Origin: a virus
Lineage: Duplodnaviria; Caudoviricetes
Strand: one strand, 5' to 3'
Virus record (IMG/VR): IMGVR_UViG_3300033121_001033
Span: 8,462 to 72,461 of that record
Length of the DNA stretch: 64,000 bases
Shown here one piece after another: positions 42,792 through 61,874 of the stretch. The notes below the pieces were generated by a model. The model was given only the letters and a program-made list of their open reading frames with translations. It made no database searches and was not told where the DNA came from. Made by a program: the position numbers and the translations under genes. Numbering within the stretch: position 1 is the stretch's first letter; every line of letters begins with the position of its first letter.

Positions 42792-43112
42792 ATGCTTATA
42801 CCACATGAATATTTACAAACTGTGTTTTTAAGGACGTTCAATAGATTAAATCTTAAATTTCCTGATCTTAAAATTAGATATGGAGAGACGCATAATTGCC
42901 CCTCTATAGATATTAGTTACAAGGAGTTATATATTAATATCTATTTTAAACAGGATAAAAGCGAATTTTTAATTGATAGCACAATTTATAACGGTATAAT
43001 AAGAACAATAAACCCCTTTAAATATGTTAAGTTATTATTAGCTGATCCAGAAGTCGACAAATCAATAGTTAAAGCGTGTGAAAGTATTATAAATGAATAT
43101 AGCGGGAATTGA
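42792..43112 (+). CDS. DP-motif family small protein
   Basis: LLADPEVDKSIV. Confidence 0.6.
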   Translation: MLIPHEYLQTVFLRTFNRLNLKFPDLKIRYGETHNCPSIDISYKELYINIYFKQDKSEFLIDSTIYNGIIRTINPFKYVKLLLADPEVDKSIVKACESIINEYSGN

Positions 43113-43683
43113 TGAGGCTGGTCGTGGTTGTATTATCGGACCAATGGTAATGTGTTGTGTTAATATAGATGAAAAAGAGCAAGATGCATGGAAATTACTT
43201 GGTATTAAAGATAGCAAACAACTTACAGTTCCAAAAAGAGAAAAACTTTATGAAAAACTTATAAATAATGTTAATTATGAATTACAAATATATACTGCTA
43301 ACGAAGTAGATGAAGCAGTATTAAGTAGTACAACCAATTTAAATTGGCTGGAAGCAGATGGAACAATTAGATTACTTAAAGGTATAGATGCCAAATGTTA
43401 TATTGATTGCCCCTCGACAAATACTAATAGCTATAAACAGTATCTTAAAAAAGAACTTACACAGGATTTAATTGTAGAACACAAAGCTGATGTTAATTAT
43501 ACTGTTGTTGGAATGGCAAGCGTTATTGCTAAAGTTACAAGAGACAATATTATTCACAAAATTAAAAAAGAAGTAGGATTCGATTTCGGATCTGGATATT
43601 TAAATGGAACGGCGATTTATGAATTTCTTAAAAATTATAAAAGCAAACATATTAGAAAAAGTTGGAATTATAAAATGAAATGA
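43093..43683 (+). CDS. rnhB: Ribonuclease HII
   Basis: GIDEAGRG, DSK, IDCP, HKAD, ASVIAKVTRD, GSGY. Confidence 0.93.
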   Translation: MNIAGIDEAGRGCIIGPMVMCCVNIDEKEQDAWKLLGIKDSKQLTVPKREKLYEKLINNVNYELQIYTANEVDEAVLSSTTNLNWLEADGTIRLLKGIDAKCYIDCPSTNTNSYKQYLKKELTQDLIVEHKADVNYTVVGMASVIAKVTRDNIIHKIKKEVGFDFGSGYLNGTAIYEFLKNYKSKHIRKSWNYKMK

Positions 43684-43931
43684 AAGCTCTAGTACTAGAA
43701 ACAATTTTAGATCAATTAGATTTAGATAGAAACCGACTATCAGTGATATTGACATATACTAACTCTGTCTATTACTATGGATATCTATTAATTACCTTAT
43801 TACATGATTATATTTATATAGGCTTAGACTATAAAGGTTACTGTTTATCGGATCCAAACTTAATTAAATTAATTATTCCTAAATTAAAAGCTTTACAACT
43901 TGATATTGAAAGAACTAAGCGATATAATTAG
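43680..43931 (+). CDS. DP-motif family small protein
   Basis: CLSDPNLIKLII. Confidence 0.55.
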   Translation: MKALVLETILDQLDLDRNRLSVILTYTNSVYYYGYLLITLLHDYIYIGLDYKGYCLSDPNLIKLIIPKLKALQLDIERTKRYN

Positions 43932-43946
43932 AAAAAGGAGATTTTT

Positions 43947-44633
43947 ATGTCATATTTTAAAATATTAAAAGAGTCCTTATTGGCTAATAAAGATTTTAAT
44001 TCGATTGTTGAAGATACAGGGACAAATAAATCTCCTTCTTCAAGAGATGTTGCTGATGAAATTCTAAAACGATTAGATTCTGCTGAAACAGAACATGATA
44101 GGATTCTAAAAAAAGCTGAAGTTCATAAAGTTCATAATAAAGAAATAGAACAATTAGAAAAAAATTTAAAACGAATTCGCGATATGAAAAATGAACTTAA
44201 ATTAGCTGCTGTTCATGCAGGACAACAAGGAAAAGTTAAATTTCCAGCTGTAAGACACGGTCTTTTTGATAAAGGCTTTAAATCAAAAGACAAACATGCT
44301 CAATTAAAAGCTGTCCGCGAAACAGGAAAAGGACTACCTGGTTATAAAGAAAATAAACGTAAAAAACTCGGTAATGTTGAAAAGAAAGTTGAAAAAGTTT
44401 TAGCGGAGCCAAAAGGTAAATTAATGGGCGGAAAGCCAGGTATTGATAAAGTTATTCCTGTTACCAGAGTAAAACTACACAATCTTAATGCTCTTGGTAA
44501 AACCGCAGATTCTCACATTAAAAAAGTCGCCAAAGAAAATGCAAAAAATAAAGAATTGTTAGATCCTAAAGAACCCGATTTTCTCAAGAGTCTAGGCGCT
44601 GGTATTCATAGAATGGGCACAAGACCTGTTTGA
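43947..44633 (+). CDS. Lys-rich basic protein, possible internal head protein
   Basis: Own AGGAG SD; N-terminus MSYFKILKES; very basic. Confidence 0.5.
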   Translation: MSYFKILKESLLANKDFNSIVEDTGTNKSPSSRDVADEILKRLDSAETEHDRILKKAEVHKVHNKEIEQLEKNLKRIRDMKNELKLAAVHAGQQGKVKFPAVRHGLFDKGFKSKDKHAQLKAVRETGKGLPGYKENKRKKLGNVEKKVEKVLAEPKGKLMGGKPGIDKVIPVTRVKLHNLNALGKTADSHIKKVAKENAKNKELLDPKEPDFLKSLGAGIHRMGTRPV

Positions 44634-44935
44634 TTTACGAAACAATAGCTAAATATCTTTCAGAACAAATTGGAAGAGAAATAATATTTCATTCAAGATT
44701 TCATCCAGATTTTGTCGAGTTCTGTGTTGTAAGTAATACACTTAAACAAAAGAATGAAATATTATTATTTAGTGTTCTTGTAAACGAACGTAGTCAGTTA
44801 TCTTCATTCCATGATGAAAATTTTAGAATATCCAATCCAAATTTTTTGAAAGTTGCATTAGAACGAACAAAATTAAGAATAGCAGAGATTATAAAAAGAC
44901 AAGATTTTTACGGTGCGTATTACAAACAACTTTGA
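44630..44935 (+). CDS. DP-motif family small protein
   Basis: MIYETIAKYL...RISNPNFLKVAL. Confidence 0.6.
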   Translation: MIYETIAKYLSEQIGREIIFHSRFHPDFVEFCVVSNTLKQKNEILLFSVLVNERSQLSSFHDENFRISNPNFLKVALERTKLRIAEIIKRQDFYGAYYKQL

Positions 44936-44985
44936 TGATAACTAGAAATACACCTACTTAATTAAGACTGGTAGGTGTACTTTGT

Positions 44986-45240
44986 TTGATAGAAAGTGTA
45001 ATTCTTGATTTTTTTAGAAAACTAAAATGTACTGTTAGACGTACTACATTATCGAAACATTATTATCTCGCTTGTAATTCTGTCTATATAATTCATTTAA
45101 GTGGACAACACAGTTGGTTTGTTCTGTTTTATAGCACGTATTTTACCGTGTATACTTATACATTTGAGTATAATGATCCAGAATTTTTAACTAAACTAGA
45201 ACAAGCTATTATTAATTATAGGTTAGTAAATGAAATATAG
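44986..45240 (+). CDS. DP-motif family small protein
   Basis: EYNDPEFLTKLEQAI. Confidence 0.6.
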   Translation: MIESVILDFFRKLKCTVRRTTLSKHYYLACNSVYIIHLSGQHSWFVLFYSTYFTVYTYTFEYNDPEFLTKLEQAIINYRLVNEI

Positions 45241-45553
45241 TGAAATAATTGTCAATGACATAATCAACAATACAATACCTGATGCTATGGTTGGCTATCA
45301 CTATAAGGTTGATAGCTCCTATTATAAAGTAGATGAATTTATAGAAATAAAAATTATCTATGGAGAATCACCAGAAGATCTAAAATTTAATTATTGTATG
45401 TTTATACCAAATACTAGTCCATTCGATTTTTATACGGCATATAATAATGTTACAGTTATTGATTATAATGATCCGGCATCAATACCTAAACTCAGATGTT
45501 TGATTTTAGAATCCATTAAACAATATCTTAAAGAAAAGAAAAGGAAAGTCTAA
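45230..45553 (+). CDS. DP-motif family small protein
   Basis: DYNDPASIPKLRCLI. Confidence 0.55.
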   Translation: MKYSEIIVNDIINNTIPDAMVGYHYKVDSSYYKVDEFIEIKIIYGESPEDLKFNYCMFIPNTSPFDFYTAYNNVTVIDYNDPASIPKLRCLILESIKQYLKEKKRKV

Positions 45554-47734
45554 ATGACAAAAAATAAAGAAGTATCTGATTATACAGAAAAAGATATGGT
45601 TCACAAAGAAGGTGTTGACGCAGTTAGGCAAAATATTGCTATGTATGCTGGCGACACATCTTATAACGGATTTCACCACCTCGGAAGCGAGGTCATTGAC
45701 AACAGCCTGGATGAATGTTTAGCTGGTTATGCGAATAAAATTGACGTTATAATTCATCAAGATGGTTCGTGTACAATAACTGATAATGGTCGTGGTATTC
45801 CGGCAGAAAAACATCCCGATCATCCTGTCTCAACTCTAGAAGTTTCAACAAGCTATTTACATTCTAGTGGAAAGTATACAAAAAACGCATACAAAAAATT
45901 CAGCTCTGGTTTACATGGAATTGGATTAAAACTTGCCAATTTTTGTAGCAATTGGATGGAAATAACAGTACAAAGAGAAGGAAAGAAATACTTCCTTAAA
46001 TACGTAGAAGGTGTTGTAACAGAACCAGTTAAAGTAATTGGTGATAGTAAATTACATGGAACATCAATTAAATTTAAGCCATCTACAAAACTTTTTAGGG
46101 ACGTTGAAAAATTAGACAGACAATGGTTCCTAAAAAGATTACGAGACCTATCATTTTTAAATCCTGGAATAACAATTGTATTTAAAGATGAACGTGATAA
46201 ACCACATGAAGAAACATTTTTCCAACAAAATGGCATCAGTGATTATGTAACTTCACTATGCGGAACTAATTCAACACTTTTGAAAGAGAATTTCAAATTA
46301 GCAATAGTTGAACCTGACGGCATCTTAAAAGAAGACAATACTCAAGAAGATATGAAAGTTGATATAGCTTTCAATTATGTTGAAATGGAAAATGATATTA
46401 TCTTGTCTTTTACCAATAACATTTTTAATAAAGATGGTGGAACACATACTCAGGCATTTCAAACAGCAATAACAAACTGCTTTAATAGTTATTTAAAGAA
46501 AACACCAGATATAATTTCTAAGAAAGACCAAAAAGAACTAGGGGATAAGTCCCTCAGAGGTGAAGACTATAAGCAAGGATTAATTGCAATTATAAGTCTT
46601 AAATTAAGCAGACCACAGTTCGCTGGTCAAACAAAAGATAGATTGACAAATCCAGAAACTCTCGGTGCTGTTAGATCTGCTATTAGTAAACATTTAAATA
46701 AATGGATCGAAGAAAATCCGGGGCTAGCTAAGAAAATAGTTGAAAAGGCTGTTCTAAATTTTAGAGCGTATACAGCTTCTAAAAAAGCTATTGAAAGCAT
46801 TAAGAAGGATAGCAAATCACTTATCGGTAACAATCATAAACTAAAAGATTGCACAGACGACGATCCAGATAATATAGAATTATTTCTAGTAGAAGGAGAT
46901 TCAGCCGCTGGAACCGCAATTAACGGTCGCGATCCAAAAACACAAGCTGTCTTAGCCCTTGGTGGTAAAATTTTAAATACATGGAAAGCCACGACTTCAA
47001 AAATGTTAGAACACGAAGAAGTTGGTTCTATCATAAGGAGTCTAGGCACAGGAATATTAGATAACTTTGATGTTGATAAATGTAAATATGGAAAAATCAT
47101 TCTAATGTGTGACGCTGACGTTGATGGATTACATATTAGAACTCTGCTATTAACGTTTTTGTTTCAACGAATGAGAAAACTTATTGAAAACGGTAAAGTT
47201 TTCATAGCACAATCACCATTATTTAAATTACAACGAACAGACAAATTTATTAAATGTCAGATTTGTGAAAATAAAAAGGCACTTGTTGAAAATTGCGGCG
47301 CCTGCTCTGGAAATGGTAAAGCACAAGATTACATTCTTACCAATGAAGATTTTGATGACAAATTAATTGAAATTGGTGCTGATGGAATGGATATACAAGA
47401 TGCAAGTGGCAAGACAATTAAATACACTAAAGGACTTACTGGAAAAGGAAAGATTAGTCTTAATGGAAAATCAACAGCAATAGATTTTAGTAAATTACCT
47501 CCAATATTAATGCAGATTGGACAAAAACGTGTAGAAGTTACACGATTCAAAGGATTAGGCGAGCTAGATGCTAGCCAATTGTATTGGACAAGTATGCATC
47601 CAGAGAAGCGTAGATTGTTACAGATTAATATTAAAGATATTAATAACACTACACAATTGTTAGAAACATTAATGGGTAATGATTCCAATAAACGAAAGAC
47701 TTTTATCTCAGAAAAACTACATAAGGATCAATAA
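45554..47734 (+). CDS. gyrB: DNA gyrase/type IIA topoisomerase subunit B
   Basis: EVIDNSLDE, DNGRGIP, GLHGIG, EGDSA, DADVDG, RFKGLGE. Confidence 0.95.
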   Translation: MTKNKEVSDYTEKDMVHKEGVDAVRQNIAMYAGDTSYNGFHHLGSEVIDNSLDECLAGYANKIDVIIHQDGSCTITDNGRGIPAEKHPDHPVSTLEVSTSYLHSSGKYTKNAYKKFSSGLHGIGLKLANFCSNWMEITVQREGKKYFLKYVEGVVTEPVKVIGDSKLHGTSIKFKPSTKLFRDVEKLDRQWFLKRLRDLSFLNPGITIVFKDERDKPHEETFFQQNGISDYVTSLCGTNSTLLKENFKLAIVEPDGILKEDNTQEDMKVDIAFNYVEMENDIILSFTNNIFNKDGGTHTQAFQTAITNCFNSYLKKTPDIISKKDQKELGDKSLRGEDYKQGLIAIISLKLSRPQFAGQTKDRLTNPETLGAVRSAISKHLNKWIEENPGLAKKIVEKAVLNFRAYTASKKAIESIKKDSKSLIGNNHKLKDCTDDDPDNIELFLVEGDSAAGTAINGRDPKTQAVLALGGKILNTWKATTSKMLEHEEVGSIIRSLGTGILDNFDVDKCKYGKIILMCDADVDGLHIRTLLLTFLFQRMRKLIENGKVFIAQSPLFKLQRTDKFIKCQICENKKALVENCGACSGNGKAQDYILTNEDFDDKLIEIGADGMDIQDASGKTIKYTKGLTGKGKISLNGKSTAIDFSKLPPILMQIGQKRVEVTRFKGLGELDASQLYWTSMHPEKRRLLQINIKDINNTTQLLETLMGNDSNKRKTFISEKLHKDQ

Positions 47735-50161
47735 ATGGAATATATAGATATTAATGATGAATTATCAAATAGTTATTTAGATTATTCATTAAATGTGTTA
47801 ACAGATAGAGCCATCCCTGATATTAGGGATGGATTAAAACCTTCTCATAGAAGATTATTAATCTCTATGAATGACTTAAATCTTTATCCCAATAAAAAGT
47901 CAGTTAAGTCCGCCACAATAGTTGGACAATGTCTGGCATTTTACCATCCGCACTCTGACGCATCAGCATATGGTACGATGGTTAGAATGGCACAACCTTT
48001 CTCTCTTCGGTATCCCCTAATAAAAGGACAGGGAAATTTTGGTAACGTTGGCGGAAGTCCAGCTGCTGCAATGCGTTATACAGAAGCCAGAATGAGCAAT
48101 GCCTGTGAAGATCTTCTGGATGATTTACAAGTAGATGGAAAATGGACAGTTAAAGTTGCTAAAAACTTTGACGGATCACGCGATGAACCAACAGTGTTAC
48201 CAAGTAAATTTCCCAATTTATTAGCTAATGGTTCTGAAGGTATTGCTGTTGGATGGGCGACATCAATTCTACCACACAATATTAAAGAATTAAGCGCCGC
48301 TTTAGTTGAGATGGTTAAAGATCCTAATATTACAGATGATAATTTACTTAAATTAATTACAGGTCCTGATTTTCCAACTGGTGGTATTATTCACGGAAGG
48401 GATGGAATCAAAAAACTATTTACAACAGGTAGTGGGACTTTAGTTGTTACTGGAAGAACAGTTATTGACCAATCGGGTAAAAATTCAACAATAACAGTTA
48501 AAGACCTTCCATATGGTGTTACAACCAACAGTTTCCTAGAAAAAGCTGATCAAGCCTTTAGAGATGGAAAACTTACTGGTGTTTCACACCTTAAAGATGC
48601 ATCTTCTGAACGAGCAGGTGACCCTGTAAATGTAATTTTTTATCTCAAAAAGGGCGAAGATCCTAATACTGTATTGAATCAGTTATATGAAAATACACAA
48701 CTTAAAACTACAGTTAGCGGTAATATGATTGCCCTTATAGACGGACCTGGTGGACAAAGAATTCCGTCTAAGTGTCCATTGCCAATGCGTAGATTAATGT
48801 CTGATTGGATTGCTTTTAGAAAATCAGTTGTAAAACAAAAATCACAAATTCAATTAGAAACTACGAAAAAAGATATTGAAAAATTAGAAGCCTTACATAA
48901 AGCAGTTGATCCTCTTAAAATAGATGCAGTAATAAAAATAATAAAAGAGGGTGATGACGAGGCAGATGTAATTAGTAAATTAACTAAACTTTTAGAGATT
49001 AATGAAATACAGGCTAAATATATCCTTGACATAACGTTACGTAAACTAATGAAATTAGAACGAGATACGTTAGCTAAAAATCTTGAAAGTAAAAAAGCTA
49101 CAGCTAAACGACTTGAAGCGATTATTAATGATCCAAAAGAAGTAGATGCAATAATAATAAATGAACTTCAAGCAATTTCCAAGAAATATGGTGACGAGCG
49201 TAAAACCGAAATTCGTGGAGCACTAAAAGAGGTTGATCCTTTAGACACCATTAAACAAGAAGATGTTGTAGTTACACTTACACAATCTGGTTATGTCAAA
49301 CGTACTCTATTGAGTGATTATCGTCAAACCGGACGTGGAACTAAAGGTGTTATCTCAAATGTCCCAGATGAAGATACGGTTACCAAAGTATTAACTACTA
49401 CAACGCATGATGATTTATTAATCTTTACGAATGGTGGTAATGTTCATAGTATTAAAGTACATCAGATTCCAGAAAGCTCAAGAACAGCAAAAGGCCGATC
49501 TTTAGTTAATCTAGTTGAATTAGGAACTGAAAAAGTTGTCAATGTACTACCTGTTTCTAATTATGATGGTGCATTATTATTCGGAACCCGTAATGGTCTA
49601 ATTAAGAAGACTATGTTGTCAGAATATACCGATATTAATAGACGAGGCATTACGGCTATAAAATTGAATCCAGAGGATGCATTGGTTGCTGTTTGTCAAG
49701 AAACAGGTGATCAGATATTATTTGTAACACAAAATGGAAATGCAGTTAGAATTCCGACAGATCAAGTAAGTTCACAAGGGCGAGCTACGTTAGGTAAACG
49801 TGGAATCAAACTGAAAGATAATGATATGATTTGTGCAATGCATAGTATTACAAAAGATGACACACGTTTCTTGTCTACAGTGTCACGCGCCGGATGTGGT
49901 AAACTAACTCCTCTTTCAGAGTATCCAGAACATAATTGTGCAACAAGCGGTGTTCTTACCTCACTGGTAACTGATGATTCTTCAAAACTTGCTACGGCAC
50001 TAGTTGTTACAAAAGATGACAGTTTATTAATTACTACAAACTATGGAAAAATAGTTCGCATAGAAACAAAGGATATTCGAGTGTCTGATCGAAGAACTAA
50101 AGGTGTTAAGTTAATGAATCTAGATGAGAATCACTCAGTAAGTAATGCAACAGTAGTATGA
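47735..50161 (+). CDS. gyrA: DNA gyrase subunit A with beta-pinwheel CTD
   Basis: RDGLKP, YHPHSD, AAMRYTE (catalytic Tyr), GyrA-box-like RQTGRGTKG, six CTD blades. Confidence 0.95.
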   Translation: MEYIDINDELSNSYLDYSLNVLTDRAIPDIRDGLKPSHRRLLISMNDLNLYPNKKSVKSATIVGQCLAFYHPHSDASAYGTMVRMAQPFSLRYPLIKGQGNFGNVGGSPAAAMRYTEARMSNACEDLLDDLQVDGKWTVKVAKNFDGSRDEPTVLPSKFPNLLANGSEGIAVGWATSILPHNIKELSAALVEMVKDPNITDDNLLKLITGPDFPTGGIIHGRDGIKKLFTTGSGTLVVTGRTVIDQSGKNSTITVKDLPYGVTTNSFLEKADQAFRDGKLTGVSHLKDASSERAGDPVNVIFYLKKGEDPNTVLNQLYENTQLKTTVSGNMIALIDGPGGQRIPSKCPLPMRRLMSDWIAFRKSVVKQKSQIQLETTKKDIEKLEALHKAVDPLKIDAVIKIIKEGDDEADVISKLTKLLEINEIQAKYILDITLRKLMKLERDTLAKNLESKKATAKRLEAIINDPKEVDAIIINELQAISKKYGDERKTEIRGALKEVDPLDTIKQEDVVVTLTQSGYVKRTLLSDYRQTGRGTKGVISNVPDEDTVTKVLTTTTHDDLLIFTNGGNVHSIKVHQIPESSRTAKGRSLVNLVELGTEKVVNVLPVSNYDGALLFGTRNGLIKKTMLSEYTDINRRGITAIKLNPEDALVAVCQETGDQILFVTQNGNAVRIPTDQVSSQGRATLGKRGIKLKDNDMICAMHSITKDDTRFLSTVSRAGCGKLTPLSEYPEHNCATSGVLTSLVTDDSSKLATALVVTKDDSLLITTNYGKIVRIETKDIRVSDRRTKGVKLMNLDENHSVSNATVV

Positions 50162-50424
50162 ATCGTGAAAGCTTAATTAGAAGCATCCTAGATGAATTAA
50201 TATCTAGGATGCCTTTTTTAGAGTATGTATATTACGGCGCTCTCTTTTTGATACATAGGGATCATCCAAATTTAATAATTATAGGAGAGAGCTATAATAA
50301 AAATTATCTATTATACTTTTACTATAAAGATGACAATAATTATGATGCTGTCAGTATAAACAATCCTGAATTCTTTGAAAAAGTTGAAAAAGAGATTCGC
50401 GATATTTGTAAAATGTTTGAGTAG
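50158..50424 (+). CDS. DP-motif family small protein
   Basis: SINNPEFFEKVEKEI. Confidence 0.6.
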   Translation: MNRESLIRSILDELISRMPFLEYVYYGALFLIHRDHPNLIIIGESYNKNYLLYFYYKDDNNYDAVSINNPEFFEKVEKEIRDICKMFE

Positions 50425-50469
50425 CTTCCATTTATATATGTAGTCGTTATAATATAATGGGGTGTAATT

Positions 50470-51177
50470 ATGGATGTTAATATGTTTCAGGAACTTCCTG
50501 ATAATAAACAAAAAGAAGTTAGACAAAAATTAAATAGAGCTATTGTACGATTATCCAAACCCGGATCTCAAAGTAATACCCAACTTCTTTGGAAACTATC
50601 TGATAAAATCCACTCAAAACCAAAGATTAATGATGATAATATTGTTATTAAAAAACTATTAAATAAATACGAAAAATCCAATAAACATGATAAAGTTCGT
50701 GGACTGTTGAGTAGGAACCCAGAGCTTAGAAATTATAAACCGTTCGAATTAAAACAAAATGGCGATGGGAGTTGGGCATTAAACGATAAATACGCTGTTA
50801 TGCCTAATAATGATGATACTTATCATATAACTAAAGATGGAAAGAAAATAGGAAGTTCTCATGCTATTAGCACATATGGTAAAAAAATATCTAATATGTT
50901 TCCCCCAAGTGAAGTTACTGGAAAAAATCTAGCTCCCAATATTTACAAAATACTTAATTATTTGCATAAAGGTATAGAAAGCGATCAAAGTGTAACACTC
51001 CGTCCTGCCGTTAGACTTTGGGACAAATTAGTCCAGCAAGGACTGGCTGATAAAATGACTGATAAGAGCGGGAATCCAATTTTAAATAGTAGTGGAGATC
51101 AACGTTATAAAATGTTTCATCATAATACCAAACCTTTAATCGATAAACTTAAAAACATTCAATCTAAACAACAATGA
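50470..51177 (+). CDS. GNAT-like paralog 1
   Basis: GKNLAPNIYKILNYLHKGIESD...LWDKL...QRYKMF. Confidence 0.55.
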   Translation: MDVNMFQELPDNKQKEVRQKLNRAIVRLSKPGSQSNTQLLWKLSDKIHSKPKINDDNIVIKKLLNKYEKSNKHDKVRGLLSRNPELRNYKPFELKQNGDGSWALNDKYAVMPNNDDTYHITKDGKKIGSSHAISTYGKKISNMFPPSEVTGKNLAPNIYKILNYLHKGIESDQSVTLRPAVRLWDKLVQQGLADKMTDKSGNPILNSSGDQRYKMFHHNTKPLIDKLKNIQSKQQ

Positions 51178-51220
51178 TGCTAAAACATAGCTAACCTCAT
51201 GATTTGTATGAGGTTCGACT

Positions 51221-51670
51221 ATGTATAGAGAAAATATAATTTTAAATGAAATTGCAGACAAATTACAATCTGAGTACCCTGATTTAAATATTATCTCCAC
51301 CCATGACACTATTTATATTTGTATTGATATAGTTACTTATCATAGAATGATTCTCATACAAAATCGATTAGACAATGTTGATCTATCAGATCCAGATCTT
51401 TTTAAAAAACTTTCTGATATTGTTAACACTATTAAAGAACAATTTATTTATAATAAAATTCTCGAAGAAATATATAATAAATATATCACAATCCTACCAG
51501 AACTTACTCTTACAAAAAATAAATTATATCTAGAACGAGACAACACAAATTTTACAGAAGACGTTGTTACTGTATACGCCTGGCAGAAAACCATTCAAAT
51601 CAGCAGTCAATTTTCAGGTCTGGCTAGATTTATTAAAAATCCCTCAAATTACGGAATTGTTATCGTATGA
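51221..51670 (+). CDS. DP-motif family protein (internally duplicated domain)
   Basis: DLSDPDLFKKL followed by a second IYNKILEEIYNKY start. Confidence 0.6.
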   Translation: MYRENIILNEIADKLQSEYPDLNIISTHDTIYICIDIVTYHRMILIQNRLDNVDLSDPDLFKKLSDIVNTIKEQFIYNKILEEIYNKYITILPELTLTKNKLYLERDNTNFTEDVVTVYAWQKTIQISSQFSGLARFIKNPSNYGIVIV

Positions 51671-51954
51671 GTCTTATTTTAGAAGTAGTTAAACGAGAGG
51701 CCAGGAAACAAAAATATTATTATAGAACCTGCAATGATGCGGTTCTGCTTTCAAGATTTAAGCCGCCTTGGTATATAGGTGACATATTTGCTGAATTTAA
51801 TACCGTAGATCAGACCTTTTACCTATACAATAAATCATATCCTTTATTTAATAAACATACTAGTGCCATATTATCCATTTCGGATCCCGAATGTTTTAAA
51901 AAACTTAAACAACATAGCAAAAGATTTAGGAAAAGTAAATCATGCTGGGATTAG
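51667..51954 (+). CDS. DP-motif family small protein
   Basis: SISDPECFKKL. Confidence 0.6.
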   Translation: MSLILEVVKREARKQKYYYRTCNDAVLLSRFKPPWYIGDIFAEFNTVDQTFYLYNKSYPLFNKHTSAILSISDPECFKKLKQHSKRFRKSKSCWD

Positions 51955-52223
51955 AAATATTAAAATATTTAGGTAAAAAATTTAATTTTAATAGTTCGGT
52001 AAATTATTATTACAAATCATTTAGCCTATTATATTATAATCATAGTTTTAATGAGTTGTCTTTATTAACAATAGGTGACACTCCCACTATTAATATAAAT
52101 AGTCCAACTTTTCTCACAGATCTTGAGAATTATATTATCTACCTCAAAAATTTTATTGATCAGTATCCATCAATTTATTACTCTTTAAAAGATGAGAAAA
52201 TTTCATCCATTGTACTATGTTAA
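51942..52223 (+). CDS. DP-motif family small protein
   Basis: NINSPTFLTDLENYI. Confidence 0.55.
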   Translation: MLGLEILKYLGKKFNFNSSVNYYYKSFSLLYYNHSFNELSLLTIGDTPTININSPTFLTDLENYIIYLKNFIDQYPSIYYSLKDEKISSIVLC

Positions 52224-52492
52224 TAAATACAGTTTTCGAATACTTTAAACAACGATATCCCGAATTTTCACTAGAGACACGATTCGGTAGACATGAATTA
52301 TATCATCCAAACGATAAAAGTCGTTTTGTTTTAATATATTCTTCTTCTCATAATAATAAACCTATCATATATTATCGATCGTCTAATCATCCATACAATT
52401 ATAAATATTTAACTTTTAATAATCCTGAAATGATAACAATTATTAACAATACTATAATGGATTTTTTAAATGATACTAAAAACTTTATTTGA
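52217..52492 (+). CDS. DP-motif family small protein
   Basis: TFNNPEMITIINNTI. Confidence 0.6.
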   Translation: MLINTVFEYFKQRYPEFSLETRFGRHELYHPNDKSRFVLIYSSSHNNKPIIYYRSSNHPYNYKYLTFNNPEMITIINNTIMDFLNDTKNFI

Positions 52493-52688
52493 ATATTTAG
52501 CTCAAAAATATAAACTTAAGTTAGTTCACATACCTAATTATATTTATTTGTCAAACAATAATATTATTCTAGATAGTTTTGGTGATGCTGTTTATTGCGA
52601 TGCTAATTATGGTTTAGTATCTATTTCTGATCCAGAATGTCTACCTAAAATAGAAGAATATTTAAATAGAAAAGTATATGGTATCTAA
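52470..52688 (+). CDS. DP-motif family small protein
   Basis: SISDPECLPKIEEYL. Confidence 0.6.
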   Translation: MILKTLFEYLAQKYKLKLVHIPNYIYLSNNNIILDSFGDAVYCDANYGLVSISDPECLPKIEEYLNRKVYGI

Positions 52689-52923
52689 AGAAATTACCGA
52701 TTATTTGAATAAAAAATTTCCTGTTTTGAAAAATATATTTGATTGTGAGTTACATAGCTCGGTATTTGGAATTTCAATATTTATTTATGACAATGAAATA
52801 GCATATTATTCGAGAAGTTCAAATAGAGTATTATTTAATTTAGCTGACCCAGAAAGTCTCAAGCAGATAGAACTAAATATTTATAGAGATTTAGGGAATA
52901 GTGGTAATAAAACAATTATATAA
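52678..52923 (+). CDS. DP-motif family small protein
   Basis: NLADPESLKQIELNI. Confidence 0.6.
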   Translation: MVSKEITDYLNKKFPVLKNIFDCELHSSVFGISIFIYDNEIAYYSRSSNRVLFNLADPESLKQIELNIYRDLGNSGNKTII

Positions 52924-52963
52924 AGTAAATTAATATTGTATACTCTATTAGGAGACAATATTT

Positions 52964-53788
52964 ATGATACGAAATCTATTACATACTATAACTAACGTAC
53001 CCGATACTGTATTAGAGTCTGAAAACGATTTAGAAGGGCTGCCCGCCTCAGAATTAGAGAAATTGTATCATAAATTAAAAAATACAAGTAGTAACATCTC
53101 TTATAAAGACTATGATACTCCTAAAGCAGTTCTATCTCGTAATTATTTAGGCAAACTTAACCAAGCTTTACAAAAGTATTACAATCCAAACGATAACAAA
53201 CCAAAAAGTTCAAATAGTATCGAGAGAGAATTATATTACAAATACAGAAACAGTCCGAATGAAAAGAAACAAGGACGCTCTGGAAAAATAGCAAGAACAA
53301 AACCAGAAATTCTCAAAGGCAGTTATGATATTCCGCCTGCTGGCATTAAATCTCACGGCGCTTATAAACTATCAGATAGATATAAATTATTTAAAAGAAA
53401 TGCAGATCAACGACAAGCTTATCAAGTAGTTAAACATGGTAAAACTTATGGAAATGCAACTGTTAAAAATAAAGGTTCTTATCAAACACCGGAAATTGGC
53501 GGAATGTATTTATACGGAGCAAAAGGCCAAAATTTAGCGCCCGCAATTTACAGAACATTAAATAATATCCATAAAGGTATTAGTAGTGACTCAAGCTCAA
53601 CATCTAAAGATGCACAAGCTGTTTGGAAAAGATTAGTGCGTCATCATTTAGCCGAGCCCATGCGATGGCGTGATGATAGGCCAGCAAAGAACTACAATGG
53701 TGATCAGAGATATAAAATGTTCTATAACAACATAGCTAAAAATGTAAATAAACTTAGAAAATTAAATAATGAAAATAACAAACATTGA
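52964..53788 (+). CDS. GNAT-like paralog 2
   Basis: GAKGQNLAPAIYRTLNNIHKGISSD...AQAVWKRL...QRYKMF. Confidence 0.55.
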   Translation: MIRNLLHTITNVPDTVLESENDLEGLPASELEKLYHKLKNTSSNISYKDYDTPKAVLSRNYLGKLNQALQKYYNPNDNKPKSSNSIERELYYKYRNSPNEKKQGRSGKIARTKPEILKGSYDIPPAGIKSHGAYKLSDRYKLFKRNADQRQAYQVVKHGKTYGNATVKNKGSYQTPEIGGMYLYGAKGQNLAPAIYRTLNNIHKGISSDSSSTSKDAQAVWKRLVRHHLAEPMRWRDDRPAKNYNGDQRYKMFYNNIAKNVNKLRKLNNENNKH

Positions 53789-54221
53789 TATTTATAACGA
53801 CATAATAAAATTTGTACACGAAAAAATTCCGTTTACAATATTTCACAGCTATAAAACAGCATACCATGATTATTTACATTATGAAATTCGATACAAGAAT
53901 GAAGTTTTACTTTCAGTAAGATATGAATCATTATATTTAATAGAATTTGTTAAAACATTTCCTCGTGGAGAAAGCGAAAGCAAAATAAAACAATCTATTT
54001 CAAATAATTTAAATGATCCAGAATTCTTAAATGTATTAATTAATTATCTCATGCGTATAATAAATTTAATTGACATTAAAGAACATCTAAAAGAATTTTA
54101 TATCGTCGATGAGAAGATTTATACTTCTAATGATGTTGTAGTTTCTAAAGAGTTGCATGATATGATACTTCCATATATTGGCTTTTTTGATTTAGAAGAA
54201 ATTTTTGATGAGAGTGCTTAA
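53769..54221 (+). CDS. DP-motif family protein
   Basis: NLNDPEFLNVLINYL. Confidence 0.6.
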   Translation: MKITNIDIYNDIIKFVHEKIPFTIFHSYKTAYHDYLHYEIRYKNEVLLSVRYESLYLIEFVKTFPRGESESKIKQSISNNLNDPEFLNVLINYLMRIINLIDIKEHLKEFYIVDEKIYTSNDVVVSKELHDMILPYIGFFDLEEIFDESA

Positions 54222-54222
54222 T

Positions 54223-54433
54223 ATGATTCATCAGTATCTTGTTGAATATATAAAATCCAAAAATATGCATTTATGGATTGGAATGGTACGAGATTGGGAA
54301 AATAGAAATATGGTTTGGTGATGATTTTATTTGTTTAGATAATGAAATCGTAGAGTTTAGTGACCCTCATTTAATTTCCAAAATTGATAATAAAATTTTG
54401 GAGTACAAAAACGCAGCATTACAAAGTCTATAA
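54223..54433 (+). pseudogene. Frameshifted DP-motif paralog of the 58088 gene
   Basis: MIHQYLVEYIKSK frame stops at 54319-21; the +1 frame carries FGDDFICLDNEIVEFSDPHLISKIDNKI. Confidence 0.6.
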
Positions 54434-54461
54434 TATATAACAAGAATATAGGAGTACGGTA

Positions 54462-54794
54462 TTGAAAACTGATATCATCCCATCTAATAATATGATATAT
54501 GAAGCAATATTAAATTATCTTGTAGATAAAATTCCAAATACATATATCGGAAAATATCCAGAGGCTGGTCCAGCTTTCGGTAATATGTTAATTGCTAAGG
54601 GAATTAATAAATTAGATGAACATTTGTTTTGGCATCATATACCAAGTAATGCTTTTTATGTAAGAAGACAATTTAATCGAGGAGCTTATGAAAAGCCAAT
54701 TACACCTGTTGATTTAGCTGACCCTGAATTCTTATATAAGATAGAAATGCAAATAAAGGAATTTTTAACACAATGTTATACGAAGTTATCTTAA
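54462..54794 (+). CDS. DP-motif family small protein
   Basis: MIYEAILNYLVDKIP...DLADPEFLYKIEMQI. Confidence 0.65.
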   Translation: MKTDIIPSNNMIYEAILNYLVDKIPNTYIGKYPEAGPAFGNMLIAKGINKLDEHLFWHHIPSNAFYVRRQFNRGAYEKPITPVDLADPEFLYKIEMQIKEFLTQCYTKLS

Positions 54795-55036
54795 AATATT
54801 TAGAAGATAAAATCCCCCATACTCAAATATCTGAAATGGATACTACAAGAACTGGACTGATCTTAAAATCAGAACCAGAGCTATTTCTTTTTTGGGAATA
54901 CAATGAAACATACTATATTAGAGAAAACACGGGTTTAAATTTTTCAAAAGTAAATCTCTCAGATCCTAATATTCTAAATTATATAGAAACTAAACTTAAA
55001 AATTATATTAATATGAGAACTAAATATGAATGCTAA
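54773..55036 (+). CDS. DP-motif family small protein
   Basis: MLYEVILKYLEDKIP...NLSDPNILNYIETKL. Confidence 0.65.
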   Translation: MLYEVILKYLEDKIPHTQISEMDTTRTGLILKSEPELFLFWEYNETYYIRENTGLNFSKVNLSDPNILNYIETKLKNYINMRTKYEC

Positions 55037-55289
55037 CTATATTCCTAAACAAATTCTTATAGAATTAAATAATAAATTTCCCACCACACAATTAAAATTA
55101 ATTGATTCTCCAGAGCATCTGTACGAATATTTATTATCATACGATGGTATAAAGTTATATTATACTCGAAACGGAGAACTCAGATCTGGATTAATGACAA
55201 TAGATTTGGCCGATCCTAATATAATACAGAACATAGAAAATGATATTAAGGAAACCATAAAACTGTTCTCACTAAAAGGGATTACATAA
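55026..55289 (+). CDS. DP-motif family small protein
   Basis: DLADPNIIQNIENDI. Confidence 0.65.
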   Translation: MNANYIPKQILIELNNKFPTTQLKLIDSPEHLYEYLLSYDGIKLYYTRNGELRSGLMTIDLADPNIIQNIENDIKETIKLFSLKGIT

Positions 55290-55621
55290 TGAATTACAAT
55301 GAGATATTAAATCAGATTGTAATAGAACTTCATAATAAATTTCCAGGTACTGAGTTAGAAACGGGTGTTACAGATTATAAACAATTGAACTGTGTTAGAT
55401 TGCGATACAAAGCATTACTAATTATTACTACATGGAACTCTCGTCTTACATTAAAGATTGTTGAAAGCGAAAATAATAATAAACCAATGTCTTTGTCAGA
55501 TCCTAATTTTATGAACGAACTAATGTCTAAAGTACAGCGCACGATTAATAACATAGATGCTGGAAATCGCAGCAATTTTTGTTTCAAGGATTTTTTAAAT
55601 AATGAGTTTATCTATGAGTAA
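55289..55621 (+). CDS. DP-motif family small protein
   Basis: SLSDPNFMNELMSKV. Confidence 0.65.
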   Translation: MNYNEILNQIVIELHNKFPGTELETGVTDYKQLNCVRLRYKALLIITTWNSRLTLKIVESENNNKPMSLSDPNFMNELMSKVQRTINNIDAGNRSNFCFKDFLNNEFIYE

Positions 55622-55681
55622 TTCTGTTTTCTATAAAATTTAAAAATATACCAATGAATTACAATAAATTTTAAATAAATT

Positions 55682-55987
55682 ATGATATATGAAACATTAT
55701 TACAATACTTTAAACAAAGAATACCAGACACAAGAATAGGCGAACTTGATGGCTTTATTTTAAGAGATTATTTATATCATAAAATATATGATTGTTTTTT
55801 AATTTATAATATTAATGGGACATCACGTTTCAGTTGTATTATTGATAACAGACTGGCGCATAAAGAAATAAATTTTTCAGATCCAAACATTTTAACAATC
55901 ATAGAAAAAGAACTTCATGAAGTAATAGATTTTCATAAACTAATAGTAGATAGTAATATTCAAGATAACAGTAGGCATTTATTATGA
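55682..55987 (+). CDS. DP-motif family small protein
   Basis: MIYETLLQYFKQRIP...NFSDPNILTIIEKEL. Confidence 0.65.
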   Translation: MIYETLLQYFKQRIPDTRIGELDGFILRDYLYHKIYDCFLIYNINGTSRFSCIIDNRLAHKEINFSDPNILTIIEKELHEVIDFHKLIVDSNIQDNSRHLL

Positions 55988-56274
55988 TTATACAATATAT
56001 AATAGAGAAGATTGTTTATCCAAAATTTAAAAATAAAACTGTATTAGGAAATCATCTAATGACTTATAGAGAAGAGATGCAAAAATGTTTACGTTTAAAA
56101 GATCATAATAGTCCTCCAATATTATGGGAGTTAGATAATAAATTAGCAATTATTACAGGGGCTTTTAGATACGAGGCCATAGATATAGCTGATCCAGAGT
56201 TAATACCTAACTTAGAGAAAAGAATACAGTATACAATAGATAATATTAATACTATATTGAATAATTACGATTAA
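55984..56274 (+). CDS. DP-motif family small protein
   Basis: DIADPELIPNLEKRI. Confidence 0.65.
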   Translation: MIIQYIIEKIVYPKFKNKTVLGNHLMTYREEMQKCLRLKDHNSPPILWELDNKLAIITGAFRYEAIDIADPELIPNLEKRIQYTIDNINTILNNYD

Positions 56275-56287
56275 GGTTAATCAAAAC

Positions 56288-56542
56288 ATGATACCATATG
56301 AAATAATAAAGTACTTACATAATAAATATCCTAATACAAAGATAGTAGAAAGAGAATTCTGGAATCATAATGAACACGAACTTAGACATTATTCATCTCC
56401 CATGGATGGTGTACTATTATTAATTACGTGGCTGGGTGAATTAAGAAGACTCACGATATTAGGCATTGAACCATATGACTTAGCAAATCCTAATATACTA
56501 CAAGAGATAGAACAAGACATACAAAGTAAAATTGGTAGTTAA
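56288..56542 (+). CDS. DP-motif family small protein
   Basis: DLANPNILQEIEQDI. Confidence 0.65.
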   Translation: MIPYEIIKYLHNKYPNTKIVEREFWNHNEHELRHYSSPMDGVLLLITWLGELRRLTILGIEPYDLANPNILQEIEQDIQSKIGS

Positions 56543-56603
56543 GATTTTTACTATTAAATAGTATACGCAGCATTACAAAAGTAGCATATAAAGGAAATTA
56601 AAA

Positions 56604-56933
56604 ATGGACTTAATAGTTAAAGTATTAGAAGATCATGGAAAGAAAAATAATTATCACGTAGTCCCGACCTTTTTTTCGAATTATTTTCTATTACGAATAC
56701 TAAGTAAAAAACAATTTGAAACATTAGAAAATAATATGTATACGACATATGAGTTTACTACGATAGGTAGTTATTACAATGGAGAGAACGTAGCTCTTAA
56801 TAAATCTAAACAGGAAATTATATCTTTAAATGATCCTGAGCTTTTAACTAAAATAGCAAAGTGCGCCAAATATAAAGTCAATAGATTCAAAAAGAAAATC
56901 AAAACCCTTAAAGAAACGTTAAATAAAATATGA
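56604..56933 (+). CDS. DP-motif family small protein
   Basis: SLNDPELLTKIAKC. Confidence 0.6.
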   Translation: MDLIVKVLEDHGKKNNYHVVPTFFSNYFLLRILSKKQFETLENNMYTTYEFTTIGSYYNGENVALNKSKQEIISLNDPELLTKIAKCAKYKVNRFKKKIKTLKETLNKI

Positions 56934-57205
56934 TTTACAAAGCCATACTAGATTATTTTCTTAATAAAATACCAAATTCGTATATTGGAACAGTTACTAC
57001 TATTCCAAAATTCGATATTATGTTAGTTATTAAAACAAATTTTACAGTACAACATCTACTTTGGCGTTATATTCCAGATAACTCAATATATGTAAGAACA
57101 TCATTAAACGGCGATGGTGTTAAAGTAGATCCAAGTAATCCAAATTTTCTTCAAGATGTAGAACAACATATAATAGAATTTATAAAAAGAACAGATTCTC
57201 TATAA
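56930..57205 (+). CDS. DP-motif family small protein
   Basis: MIYKAILDYFLNKIP...DPSNPNFLQDVEQHI. Confidence 0.65.
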   Translation: MIYKAILDYFLNKIPNSYIGTVTTIPKFDIMLVIKTNFTVQHLLWRYIPDNSIYVRTSLNGDGVKVDPSNPNFLQDVEQHIIEFIKRTDSL

Positions 57206-57260
57206 TTTTATTCCTCTTTTATTTTATAAAAGTTAATGTAAAATAAAACTGAGGTGCTAG

Positions 57261-58061
57261 ATGAAACAATCAATGTTACATGAAGTTCGTGATGTATTAA
57301 ATATATTTAATGGATTACATCCTGATAAGTTAGATGATATTGATCGCAAAATTTCAGCAGCTTACAATAAATTAGATACAAAAGGTAAACCAAACAGAGC
57401 AGGATATAATTATCTATCCAAAATTGCGAATCAGGTTTACGCAGCAAAGAGTAGTCATTTATTTGAAAGACCAAAGATCAATAAAATTAGGGAACTACTC
57501 AATAAATTTAAAGAGAGTACGGGCAGGAAAAATTCAAAAGTCGGTGCTATTCTTAGAAGTTATCCAGAATTAGGAAAACCACAAAAACCATTTGAGTTCA
57601 AAAAAGATGACAAAGGTTCATATCATATTGATGATGAGCATAAATTAGTTAGAACTCCTATGAATGATGATCATTATCAGCCTTACGTAAAAACGTATCA
57701 AATACATAAACATGATAAACAAATACCAGGTAGTGAAATCACTGTTGATCATAAAGGTACTCCTTATGTATCAGGAATGTTTCCAAATATAACAGGCAAG
57801 AACTTGGCGCCAAATATTTATCAAGTTTTAAATAGATTACATAACGGTATTACTAGTGATGAACATACGACATTAGAACCGGCGCAAAAACTTTGGAAAC
57901 GTTTGTATAAGATGGGTTTAGCCGAACCAATGGTAGATAAAAAAGGCGTACCGGTTTTAAATACAGATGGAAGACAAAGATATAAAATGTTCTATAATAA
58001 TATAACTAAGAATACTGATAGGTTAAAAAGTCTTATTAATAATAGATTTGATAGACGTTAA
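57261..58061 (+). CDS. GNAT-like paralog 3
   Basis: GKNLAPNIYQVLNRLHNGITSD...AQKLWKRL...QRYKMF. Confidence 0.55.
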   Translation: MKQSMLHEVRDVLNIFNGLHPDKLDDIDRKISAAYNKLDTKGKPNRAGYNYLSKIANQVYAAKSSHLFERPKINKIRELLNKFKESTGRKNSKVGAILRSYPELGKPQKPFEFKKDDKGSYHIDDEHKLVRTPMNDDHYQPYVKTYQIHKHDKQIPGSEITVDHKGTPYVSGMFPNITGKNLAPNIYQVLNRLHNGITSDEHTTLEPAQKLWKRLYKMGLAEPMVDKKGVPVLNTDGRQRYKMFYNNITKNTDRLKSLINNRFDRR

Positions 58062-58087
58062 ATCCTAATATGACATTGGAATACTAA

Positions 58088-58303
58088 ATGATAGAGAAAG
58101 CAATAAAAGATTACATAGAATTAAAAGGTTTTAAACAAGTAGGAAATCTTTATGTAACTATTTATCAATTCAATGAATTATTTTTATACTTTGGAATAGG
58201 ATTTATTCTATTAAAAAACGAGATTATATCTTTTTCAGATCCTGATCTAATTTCTAAGATAGATGAGTATGTAAAAACTTCACATTACTACTCAGCATTG
58301 TAA
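58088..58303 (+). CDS. DP-motif family small protein
   Basis: SFSDPDLISKIDEYV. Confidence 0.6.
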   Translation: MIEKAIKDYIELKGFKQVGNLYVTIYQFNELFLYFGIGFILLKNEIISFSDPDLISKIDEYVKTSHYYSAL

Positions 58304-58440
58304 AAGTAGTGTATGTACCAAATCTAATGCGCAGATATGTAAAACTTTTATTTTCATCTTCACAGGAAAAACCTTTTATTAGTTACGCAGCATTACAAAA
58401 TTGCATACATATTTGTTTTATTTACTCAGCATTGCAAATC
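58289..58440 (+). repeat. Cluster of TAC(G/T)CAGCATT(A/G)(C/T)AAA repeats
   Basis: Copies at 58289, 58384 and 58423 (degenerate copy near 58328); also at 42761, 54410 and 56564. Confidence 0.75.
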
Positions 58441-58470
58441 TTTTTAAATAATCTCCATAGGGAAAACCTC

Positions 58471-58575
58471 CAGCGAATGTAATGCCAATCTTACACTTCG
58501 CTGTGAACGCATCGTGTTTGTAATACGGGCTTTACAATGAAACGAAAGGGGGTGTCCCCCTTACGATGAAACGAA
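58471..58575. repeat. Hairpins and direct repeat at the composition junction
   Basis: CAGCGAATGTAA..TTACACTTCGCTG hairpin; TTAC(A/G)ATGAAACGAA at 58532 and 58561 flanking AAGGGGG-TGT-CCCCCTT. Confidence 0.7.
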
Positions 58576-58727
58576 TGGCGCTGTTTGATGTTATTTCGCC
58601 TATGTATTGTTTTATTGTTAGCTGTTACTAGTCCCTTAAGGTCCTTCATTCGATGATAACTCGATAAGGATTTTTACTAAACAGGGACAAGTTTATCCTA
58701 ACCTCTAGCCAGGAAAGGGTTTACGAA

Positions 58728-58874
58728 ATGCCCCTCTATCAGATTGTTCGGTTTCGCTTCAAGGCCGGACGCCGTGTTATCAAGAAGGGCCTAACGCTGG
58801 CGCAGGCTCAGGCGCATTGCGATAATCCGAAGACCAAGGGCAATGACTGGTTCGATGGATATGAGGAGATGTAA
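58728..58874 (+). CDS. Small early-type phage protein, 48 aa (not in track)
   Basis: MPLYQIVRFRFKAGRRVIKKGLTLAQAQAHCDNPKTKGNDWFDGYEEM. Confidence 0.6.
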   Translation: MPLYQIVRFRFKAGRRVIKKGLTLAQAQAHCDNPKTKGNDWFDGYEEM

Positions 58875-59003
58875 CGCTTAAGTCGCATGATGCCTTGGGG
58901 TTAGGTGGAAAAAGCCCCGCAATTGGGCGGTAGATGTAGGTTCAACCCCTATCGGAAGCTTAGATGTATGGCATAGGTTCTTCTAACTTTAGGAGAATGA
59001 ATA

Positions 59004-59339
59004 ATGCAGAACGTGCTCAAACTGTTCGGTGATGTCAAGCCGATGGTTGTTTGCCAAACGGCGGATTCGTTGTTCTCGATTATCACCAAGCTCGCCAATC
59101 TCGATGTCGAGTTTGACGAGACCTCGTTTTACACTCTTCGTTTCACGTATACCGGAGATGACAACGTTCCGGATGAAGTCCAGGCTACGGTGAATGACCT
59201 GGAACCCCTTCGCCCCTTCCTGTCTCACGTTGCTTACGGTTTGCTGGAAAAGCACGCCGAAATCCTTCGGGATTGCTACGGAGAAGCAATCGAGGAAGAC
59301 AATCGACTGGAAGATCTCAAGAGAAAGGCCCGGAAGTAA
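59004..59339 (+). CDS. Hypothetical protein
   Basis: AGGAG SD; acidic. Confidence 0.6.
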   Translation: MQNVLKLFGDVKPMVVCQTADSLFSIITKLANLDVEFDETSFYTLRFTYTGDDNVPDEVQATVNDLEPLRPFLSHVAYGLLEKHAEILRDCYGEAIEEDNRLEDLKRKARK

Positions 59340-59531
59340 ATGAAGCTCTGGAAGGTTTCGGCCTTTTGCCTTGGGACTCAACTCGAAGCAATCGTTTGCG
59401 CCGAATCCAGTGTGACGGCGCTGGAAATCATTACGAAGTCTGACTCGATGTATCGAGACAATGCGGAAGTCAAGGAAATCATTCCGCAGAATGGTTCAAT
59501 TCTGATTGAGTCGAGTCGGGATCTCTGGTAA
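59340..59531 (+). CDS. Hypothetical protein
   Basis: Coupled to the upstream gene and followed by a terminator. Confidence 0.55.
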   Translation: MKLWKVSAFCLGTQLEAIVCAESSVTALEIITKSDSMYRDNAEVKEIIPQNGSILIESSRDLW

Positions 59532-59536
59532 ATCCT

Positions 59537-59637
59537 AAAGCCTGGACCCGAAAGGGTTTGGGCTTTTGCCGTTTGGCCGAGTAATAATCCTAGCGGGCTA
59601 ATGCCAGGTCGTTCTACCATGATGATTTGATGATAAT
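59537..59637 (+). promoter_or_regulatory. Hairpin + TAGCGGGC + TTGATGATA unit 1
   Basis: GAAA-loop hairpin 59537-59567, motif at 59591, TTGATGATAAT at 59627. Confidence 0.65.
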
Positions 59638-59674
59638 GTTTAGTATTTTTGTATTATTGAAAGAGAGCACTATA

Positions 59675-59929
59675 ATGGAAAAGCCCTTTATGGTTGTTTA
59701 CGTTTGGGAAAACTCCGGAAACTGGATTCTTCTCTCCTCTTTCAAAACCTTGGCCGAAGCTTCGGAAAACCGTAGGGTATCCGGCGACCTTGTTTACGAT
59801 GCCCGAACGATGGAGATCGTGAAAGATCAGACTTGGCTTTTCGATTGGGAGAAGAAAGATTCTGAATGCTATGTCAAAAGGATGTTGGAAACTCCTGTCA
59901 AGCTTGGTTCGCTACTCTATGTGAACTAG
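59675..59929 (+). CDS. Hypothetical protein
   Basis: Start reassigned to MEKPF. Confidence 0.55.
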   Translation: MEKPFMVVYVWENSGNWILLSSFKTLAEASENRRVSGDLVYDARTMEIVKDQTWLFDWEKKDSECYVKRMLETPVKLGSLLYVN

Positions 59930-60000: not shown

Positions 60001-60035
60001 AGGTTTGGTAATCACCGAATAATAGGAGCATTACC

Positions 60036-60221: not shown

Positions 60222-60224
60222 GGT

Positions 60225-61867: not shown

Positions 61868-61874
61868 AAGGATG

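Follow-up and report, generated by a model that had tools for sequence, protein, structure and literature searches.

Why would a phage keep 26 diverged copies of one small gene, and what might their products do? The question is raised by a 64,000-nucleotide stretch of DNA from a virus of the Caudoviricetes (hereafter the window), corresponding to bases 8462-72461 of the 72,461-bp IMG/VR virus record IMGVR_UViG_3300033121_001033. Within 22 kb, the window carries 26 paralogs of 71-150 amino acids (aa), comprising 25 intact genes and one frameshifted gene; 24 lie at 42792-58303 and two at 36351-36915. Interspersed among them are rnhB, gyrB, gyrA, and three larger orphan paralogs (~250 aa) to which they are unrelated. 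These small genes form one homologous family, with homology over the full length of the proteins, and the fold is predicted to be a frataxin-like alpha-beta5-alpha sandwich, an already known fold. With about even confidence, the array may be read as a lineage-specific expansion of small cytoplasmic frataxin-like binding modules in an uncultured jumbo phage.

The 26 members named in an initial annotation of the window are recovered both by open reading frame (ORF) translation and by a hidden Markov model (HMM) scan of the whole contig, which returned the 25 intact genes and the one split member, and no further member outside them. Leave-one-out HMMs recovered 24 of the 25 intact members at an expectation value (E) of at most 0.01; the member at 45230-45553 was marginal (E 0.21). 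Two disjoint subgroups of window members aligned with each other over 81 columns (96.7% probability), and external homologs aligned with divergent window members over 83 columns (96.4% probability), at E-values of 3e-10 and 1e-9. Alignments of this length imply that the similarity spans the whole protein and extends beyond the short motif that the members share.

That motif, in its strict form [DN]P[END][FLIMC][LIFM], occurs 22 times in the full set of six-frame ORFs 40 aa or longer, compared with 1.8 +/- 1.4 occurrences (maximum 7) in residue shuffles, and 21 of the 22 matches fall in family genes. The ORF at 32088-32327 carries the motif and was rejected as a member (HMM E = 8). The proline of the D-P motif is invariant in 25 of 25 proteins, and several members read D-L-A-D-P, D-I-A-D-P, or D-L-S-D-P. 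The initial annotation was right that the motif is shared, with the correction that three members carry variant forms (N-S-P-T, D-P-A, and D-P-H). The common N-terminal start that it described is also present, with the consensus M-I-x-x-x-I-x-x-x-L-x-x-K-x-P. At the DNA level, the codons used for the invariant proline are CCT (12), CCA (12), CCG (1), and CCC (1), and those for the motif serine include both TCN and AGT. Because codon choice varies at these conserved residues, the constraint acts on the protein, and the motif was rejected as a DNA-level signal.

Could the array instead be a set of decaying or non-functional duplicates, or its motif a signal in the DNA? Some features point that way: one copy is frameshifted, one member has a truncated second domain, and the GC content of the array is low (26-31%). 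In a three-frame reading of the frameshifted gene (54223-54433), translation from 54223 gives a typical N-terminal helix (MIHQYLVEYIKSK), and the frame of 54278 supplies the remainder (EFSDPHLISKID). The frameshift itself stands, and the C-terminal piece scores E 3.4e-5 with an HMM built without it; its description as a pseudogene is less secure, since an assembly error or a programmed shift would look the same here. Similarly, the internal duplication proposed for 51221-51670 is weakly supported, with a second partial domain that covers HMM positions 3-56 at an independent E-value of 0.032 and lacks the C-terminal helix. Against decay, 25 of the 26 frames have stayed open although the copies have diverged by 60-80%, conserved residues are encoded by differing synonymous codons, the family alignment yields a confident fold, and diverged homologs with the same motif occur in other metagenomes. 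These observations make decay, or a DNA-level role for the motif, extremely improbable.

The fold prediction comes from an AlphaFold2 run on one member, 54773-55036, with the 25 paralogs as the alignment. The model has a predicted local distance difference test score (pLDDT) of 92.1 and a predicted template modeling score of 0.79, and consists of a helix (residues 2-13), five strands, and a second helix (67-86). The single-sequence Atlas model of the same protein reached only 0.53, so the paralogs carry information about the fold. A shared alpha-beta(n)-alpha fold had been guessed from the sequence, and the model of this member agrees, with n equal to five; the D-P motif lies two residues before the last helix, as expected of the helix cap that it was proposed to be. 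Frataxin-like folds are defined by an alpha-beta5-alpha order in which both helices form one layer and an antiparallel sheet forms the other (PMC9424270). The model shows this order, with both terminal helices on one layer and the antiparallel sheet on the other.

The conserved residues of the family map onto the elements that would hold such a fold together. Hydrophobic positions are conserved in helix 1 (2, 6, 10, and 14) and in helix 2 (67, 68, 71, 75, and 79). K13 and P15, where helix 1 ends, are also conserved, as are E72 and the D64-P65-(E/N)66 stretch that lies two residues ahead of helix 2. By contrast with this frame, alignment columns 20-35, which correspond to the beta1-beta2 hairpin, contain 36-60% gaps. 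The claim of a conserved frame around a hypervariable center is therefore correct for the frame and needs revision for the center: variability is found mainly in the beta1-beta2 hairpin and the loops, and the central strands align well. No conserved polar cluster was found on the sheet in the family alignment, which argues against catalysis.

Taken with the model, this pattern suggests how the proteins might work. Each would be a single alpha-beta5-alpha sandwich in which amphipathic N- and C-terminal helices lie side by side on a five-stranded antiparallel sheet. Conservation would serve to maintain the fold, through i/i+3/i+4 hydrophobics in each of the two helices, a K-x-P stop that follows helix 1, and an (S/A/N)-(D/N)-P-(E/N) N-cap, and the beta1-beta2 hairpin, loops, and surface would vary from copy to copy. 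The proteins would then act non-enzymatically, as binders, and every copy would have a separate partner; host or defense proteins are the presumed targets. A binding role appears most likely because no polar residues of a catalytic or ligand-binding type are conserved. The genes lie in operons with those for RNase HII, gyrase B and A, and the larger paralogs, and would presumably be expressed alongside replication genes.

Several observations weigh against the proposal that the proteins are binding modules with separate partners. The fold model covers a single member. At the outward-facing positions of the central strands, 48-78% of family residues are hydrophobic, and a hydrophobic outer sheet suits a shared oligomerization face no less well than a variable face for binding. 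In addition, the absence of recent duplicates and the presence of a single broken copy argue against a fast arms race. The second of these points bears on another explanation, namely that the members together build one homo- or hetero-oligomeric assembly as its subunits, for example a scaffold linked to replication or compartment formation. The central strands are hydrophobic on both faces (70-78% in columns 37-41), overlapping stop and start codons suggest co-expression, and members adjoin gyrase and RNase HII, all of which would suit an assembly. However, sequence, length (71-150 aa), and charge vary more widely than is usual among the subunits of a single assembly, and this explanation is considered quite improbable.

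The charge of the proteins also bears on whether they could act on nucleic acids. Isoelectric points (pI) range from 4.2 to 9.6 and mostly fall between 5 and 7, which argues against a uniform role in DNA mimicry or nucleic acid binding. YjbR and the MotA C-terminal domain are neighbors that would favor nucleic-acid-binding regulators of a YjbR-like or MotA-C-terminal-domain-like type, acting as phage transcription factors or sensors of modified DNA. Yet the majority of members range from neutral to acidic, strong basicity is limited to 51667-51954 and 56604-56933, and K13 at the end of helix 1 is the sole conserved basic position. Moreover, a six-frame search of the contig found no match to YjbR (PF04237) at E <= 10, although the same search detected PF04237 in 9 of 14 control genomes. 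A regulatory role of this kind thus has a low probability. Beyond charge, the composition matches the earlier description of the proteins as rich in tyrosine and isoleucine: tyrosine accounts for 7.7% of residues and isoleucine for 11.8%, compared with 3.4% and 7.2% in the large proteins of the window. Asparagine and phenylalanine are also enriched, and the enrichment of all four is due in part to the low GC content of the array.

Proteins with a frataxin-like architecture include frataxin/CyaY (PF01491), YdhG/DUF1801 (PF08818), YjbR, and Nqo15. The window family resembles them in architecture; a sequence relation was not found by hmmscan or six-frame Pfam searches. With hmmscan, none of the 25 intact members matched PF01491, PF08818, PF04237, or the Pfam Imm families at E <= 1. 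The six-frame search described above was also empty for PF08818 and PF01491, which it detected in six and four of the control genomes, respectively. In frataxin, an acidic ridge formed by helix 1 and strand 1 binds iron, the sheet carries a conserved tryptophan, and conserved sheet residues contact IscS and IscU. In contrast, helix 1 of the window family has the consensus I-x-x-x-I-L-x-Y-L-x-x-K with no conserved acidic positions, and the sheet tryptophan is absent (tryptophan makes up 0.5% of family residues). Further differences from other frataxin-like families are the D-P helix-cap signature and the presence of 26 copies in one phage.

Frataxin-like families also include FxnL-toxin and FxnL-Imm/Imm54 (PMC9424270), and the architecture is found in bacterial conflict systems, in domains that act as toxins, immunity proteins, or DNA sensors. 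This raises the possibility that the array is a repertoire of frataxin-like-fold inhibitors, each neutralizing a different host defense effector or toxin, as a viral counterpart of bacterial immunity-gene arrays; such a role is judged rather unlikely. On a related view, the members would resemble immunity proteins or antitoxins, each blocking a toxic effector, as in polymorphic-toxin immunity arrays. The effector could be an abortive-infection toxin of the host or one of the interleaved ~250-aa proteins. The fold offers a precedent for an immunity-like role (PMC9424270). No toxin domain could be assigned to the interleaved proteins by Pfam, PHROG, structural modeling, or language-model neighbors. 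Neutralizers of this type are regarded as unlikely.

Database searches indicate that the binding modules proposed here belong to a family that had not been classified by sequence, lying outside the Pfam, PHROG, PADLOC, and PDB sequence families. For all 25 intact members, Pfam, PHROGs, and PADLOC gave only chance-level matches of single members, none of them recurring. A search of PDB sequences with the family profile returned only a 25-residue stretch of dynein heavy chains and noise, and Foldseek found nothing in PDB or BFVD at E <= 0.001 for the model of 54773-55036. The initial annotation had recognized no named domain, and no HMM match to a characterized Pfam family emerged to alter that view.

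Relatives are rare but present elsewhere, at about 13 metagenomic homologs for 1.84 billion representative proteins. An HMM search of these 1.84 billion gave 33 matches. Of the 33, 21 come from the window itself; another 11 are small proteins from metagenomes that carry the family signature, 10 of them diverged singletons. The metagenomic protein P0021 is 96% identical to the window member 44630-44935, from which it differs by four substitutions. Three diverged homologs are each listed on a 1125-bp ENA contig, probably one and the same. A 2177-aa repeat protein (P0029) was rejected as a homolog, as it matches the helix-cap stretch only; the match occurs four times, as T-D-P-E-F-L-K-E-V-D-K-A-V-E-R-E, and probably reflects a convergent helix-start motif. 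A word-indexed search of 5.8 billion proteins returned window proteins only with query A1, and with query A4 it returned window proteins, external sequences already queried, and one new relative, P0036. Searches of loci in viral and metagenome contigs did not find the external homologs; one locus (L003) gave a match of only 14 residues, and its record contains no family member.

How old is the expansion? The closest pair of members shares 42% identity and most pairs share 20-30%, and neighboring genes are no more similar than random pairs (p = 0.23); recent tandem duplication was rejected on both grounds. Together with the intact state of 25 of the 26 genes, these values indicate that the expansion is old and has been stably kept. 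The initial annotation had proposed birth-and-death evolution and an arms-race family. Ongoing turnover is not borne out by the same figures, and the arms-race claim is not shown by an array with only one broken copy and no recent duplicates. The rate of sequence change in the family may nonetheless be high.

Expansions of this general kind have been described in other jumbo phages. Phages G and 121Q each carry more than 30 similar genes in tandem arrays (Hua et al., 2017; PMC5646251), and a zinc-ribbon family is expanded to ~35 copies in phage G (Iyer et al., 2021; PMC7824862). Like these arrays, that of the window consists of dozens of small paralogs without annotated function, arranged head to tail in a very large genome. 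It differs in protein family and fold, and its copies, at 20-42% identity, have diverged much further than the "very similar genes" of PMC5646251. Moreover, genes for replication enzymes and members of a second orphan family lie among its copies, so that it does not form one pure block. The window therefore holds a new family with a known fold in a known phenomenon, the expansion of paralogs in jumbo phages, and leaves current understanding of that phenomenon unchanged because tandem arrays in jumbo phages have already been published. Giant phages carry hundreds of genes without an assigned role, part of which belong to large expansions of single small-protein families. To these, the array adds a well-defined case, with 26 diverged copies, a confident fold model, and fold-keeping residues that are clearly separable from the variable surface, and so offers a convenient collection for studying the role of these expansions.

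Within the array, starts and stops overlap at 15 junctions, five of them ATGA and one TTGA, in line with the ATGA-coupled arrays reported in the initial annotation, and about nine gaps of 40-60 nt divide it into sub-operons. The octamer TGATGHTA occurs 40 times across the window, compared with 11 copies expected by shuffling. It lies nearly always on the local coding strand and often just upstream of operon heads, which makes it a candidate promoter element of the phage. Copies precede the first plus-strand member (TGATGCTA at 42748, shortly upstream of 42792-43112) as well as 44986 and 51221. Sites in the window include 44933, 51175, and 30553, and many lie in 59628-63385. Shine-Dalgarno-like 4-mers precede 8 of the 26 family starts, against a background of 9%; the small number of such starts may be due to coupled translation or to a host with little dependence on Shine-Dalgarno pairing.

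The individual members are as follows, with leave-one-out HMM E-values unless stated otherwise. Two lie on the minus strand, 36670-36915 (81 aa, LSDPNFF, E 2.9e-6) and 36351-36677 (108 aa, FSDPNLF, E 0.01), the former being the best BLASTP partner of the latter. Directly downstream of them, 36912-40419 (minus strand) encodes a DUF2201_N putative metallopeptidase, a MoxR-like AAA ATPase, and an R2K-clade ATP-grasp protein. All other members are on the plus strand, where the block opens with 42792-43112 (106 aa, LADPEVD, E 3.9e-3), which overlaps the start of rnhB by 20 nt. The rnhB gene for RNase HII (43093-43683, plus strand; PF01351, E 3e-40) is followed through an ATGA overlap at its stop by 43680-43931 (83 aa, E 1.1e-3). 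Two members with TTG starts, 44630-44935 (101 aa, ISNPNFL, E 1.3e-4) and 44986-45240 (84 aa, YNDPEFL, E 3.9e-6), precede the marginal member 45230-45553 (107 aa, YNDPASI), which is included on its array position and D-P motif and abuts gyrB. The gyrase genes, gyrB (45554-47734) and gyrA (47735-50161), both on the plus strand, carry the DNA_gyraseB, Toprim, DNA_topoisoIV, and DNA_gyraseA_C domains, and an ATGA overlap links the gyrA stop to 50158-50424 (88 aa, E 1.1e-8).

Beyond gyrA, the first larger paralog is followed by 51221-51670 (149 aa, E 1.3e-6), in which a full domain (residues 1-75) precedes the truncated second one, and by 51667-51954 (95 aa, pI 9.6, E 1.1e-5), 51942-52223 (93 aa, variant motif INSPTFL, E 2.7e-4), 52217-52492 (91 aa, E 2.6e-7), 52470-52688 (72 aa, E 1.6e-8), and 52678-52923 (81 aa, E 2.2e-7). 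After the second larger paralog comes 53769-54221 (150 aa, E 7.2e-5), with a domain spanning residues 1 to ~105 and an unmatched 45-aa tail; the HMM covers residues 5-120. The frameshifted copy separates it from 54492-54794 (100 aa from its ATG, beginning MIYEAILNYL, E 2.1e-11), which forms the closest pair with 56930-57205, and from the modeled protein, 54773-55036 (87 aa, E 9.4e-13). The run continues with 55026-55289 (87 aa, E 2.5e-12), 55289-55621 (110 aa, E 7.8e-11), 55682-55987 (101 aa, E 8e-11), 55984-56274 (96 aa, ATGA overlap, E 5.6e-7), 56288-56542 (84 aa, E 1.5e-10), 56604-56933 (109 aa, pI 9.5, E 6.7e-7), and 56930-57205 (91 aa, ATGA overlap, E 5.8e-13). The shortest member, 58088-58303 (71 aa, E 8e-5), closes the array behind the third larger paralog.

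The three larger paralogs, compared in alignment A2, are encoded on the plus strand at 50470-51177 (235 aa), 52964-53788 (274 aa), and 57261-58061 (266 aa). They form an orphan family with 38-44% mutual identity and a strongly conserved C-terminal block, G-K-N-L-A-P-x-I-Y ... G-D-Q-R-Y-K-M-F, and they precede runs of small genes. On comparison, the small family proved unrelated to them, and 43947-44633 was rejected as a further larger paralog. The larger paralogs gave no Pfam or PHROG match, searches of viral contigs returned no relatives, no homologs turned up beyond the source phage, and an AlphaFold2 model of 57261-58061 was unusable (pLDDT 46). Their earlier description as GNAT-like finds no backing in Pfam; among the language-model neighbors of 57261-58061, 4 of 30 are phage GNAT clusters (score 0.91), and this likeness serves as a lead from such neighbors only.

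The source record has no end repeats, and CheckV puts its completeness at 18%. If this estimate holds, 72.5 kb would correspond to a genome of ~400 kb, and the source is thus probably an uncultured jumbo phage. Elsewhere, the window encodes a replication module with a DnaB-like helicase, a primase with an intein, a UvsX-like recombinase, and exonucleases; besides RNase HII and gyrase B and A, it also encodes thioredoxin and Hsp20. The closest cultivated phages are distant, with identities of at most 30% for the RecA-like protein and at most 43% for GyrB. A 26.8-kb viral contig (L002, IMGVR_UViG_3300033066_000388) encodes a DnaB-like helicase 100% identical to that of the window and so represents the same phage assembled from a different sample; family members were not found on this fragment, which covers other genes. 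Hint/intein domains with homing-endonuclease or HNH parts occur in the primase gene (22786-24987, minus strand) and in a gene of 1030 aa (27440-30532, minus strand), giving at least two intein-bearing genes on the contig. Right after the last array gene, GC content rises from 26-31% to 41-47% (58300-64000), and gene content and regulatory repeats also shift at 58300, marking a sharp compositional boundary within the phage contig.

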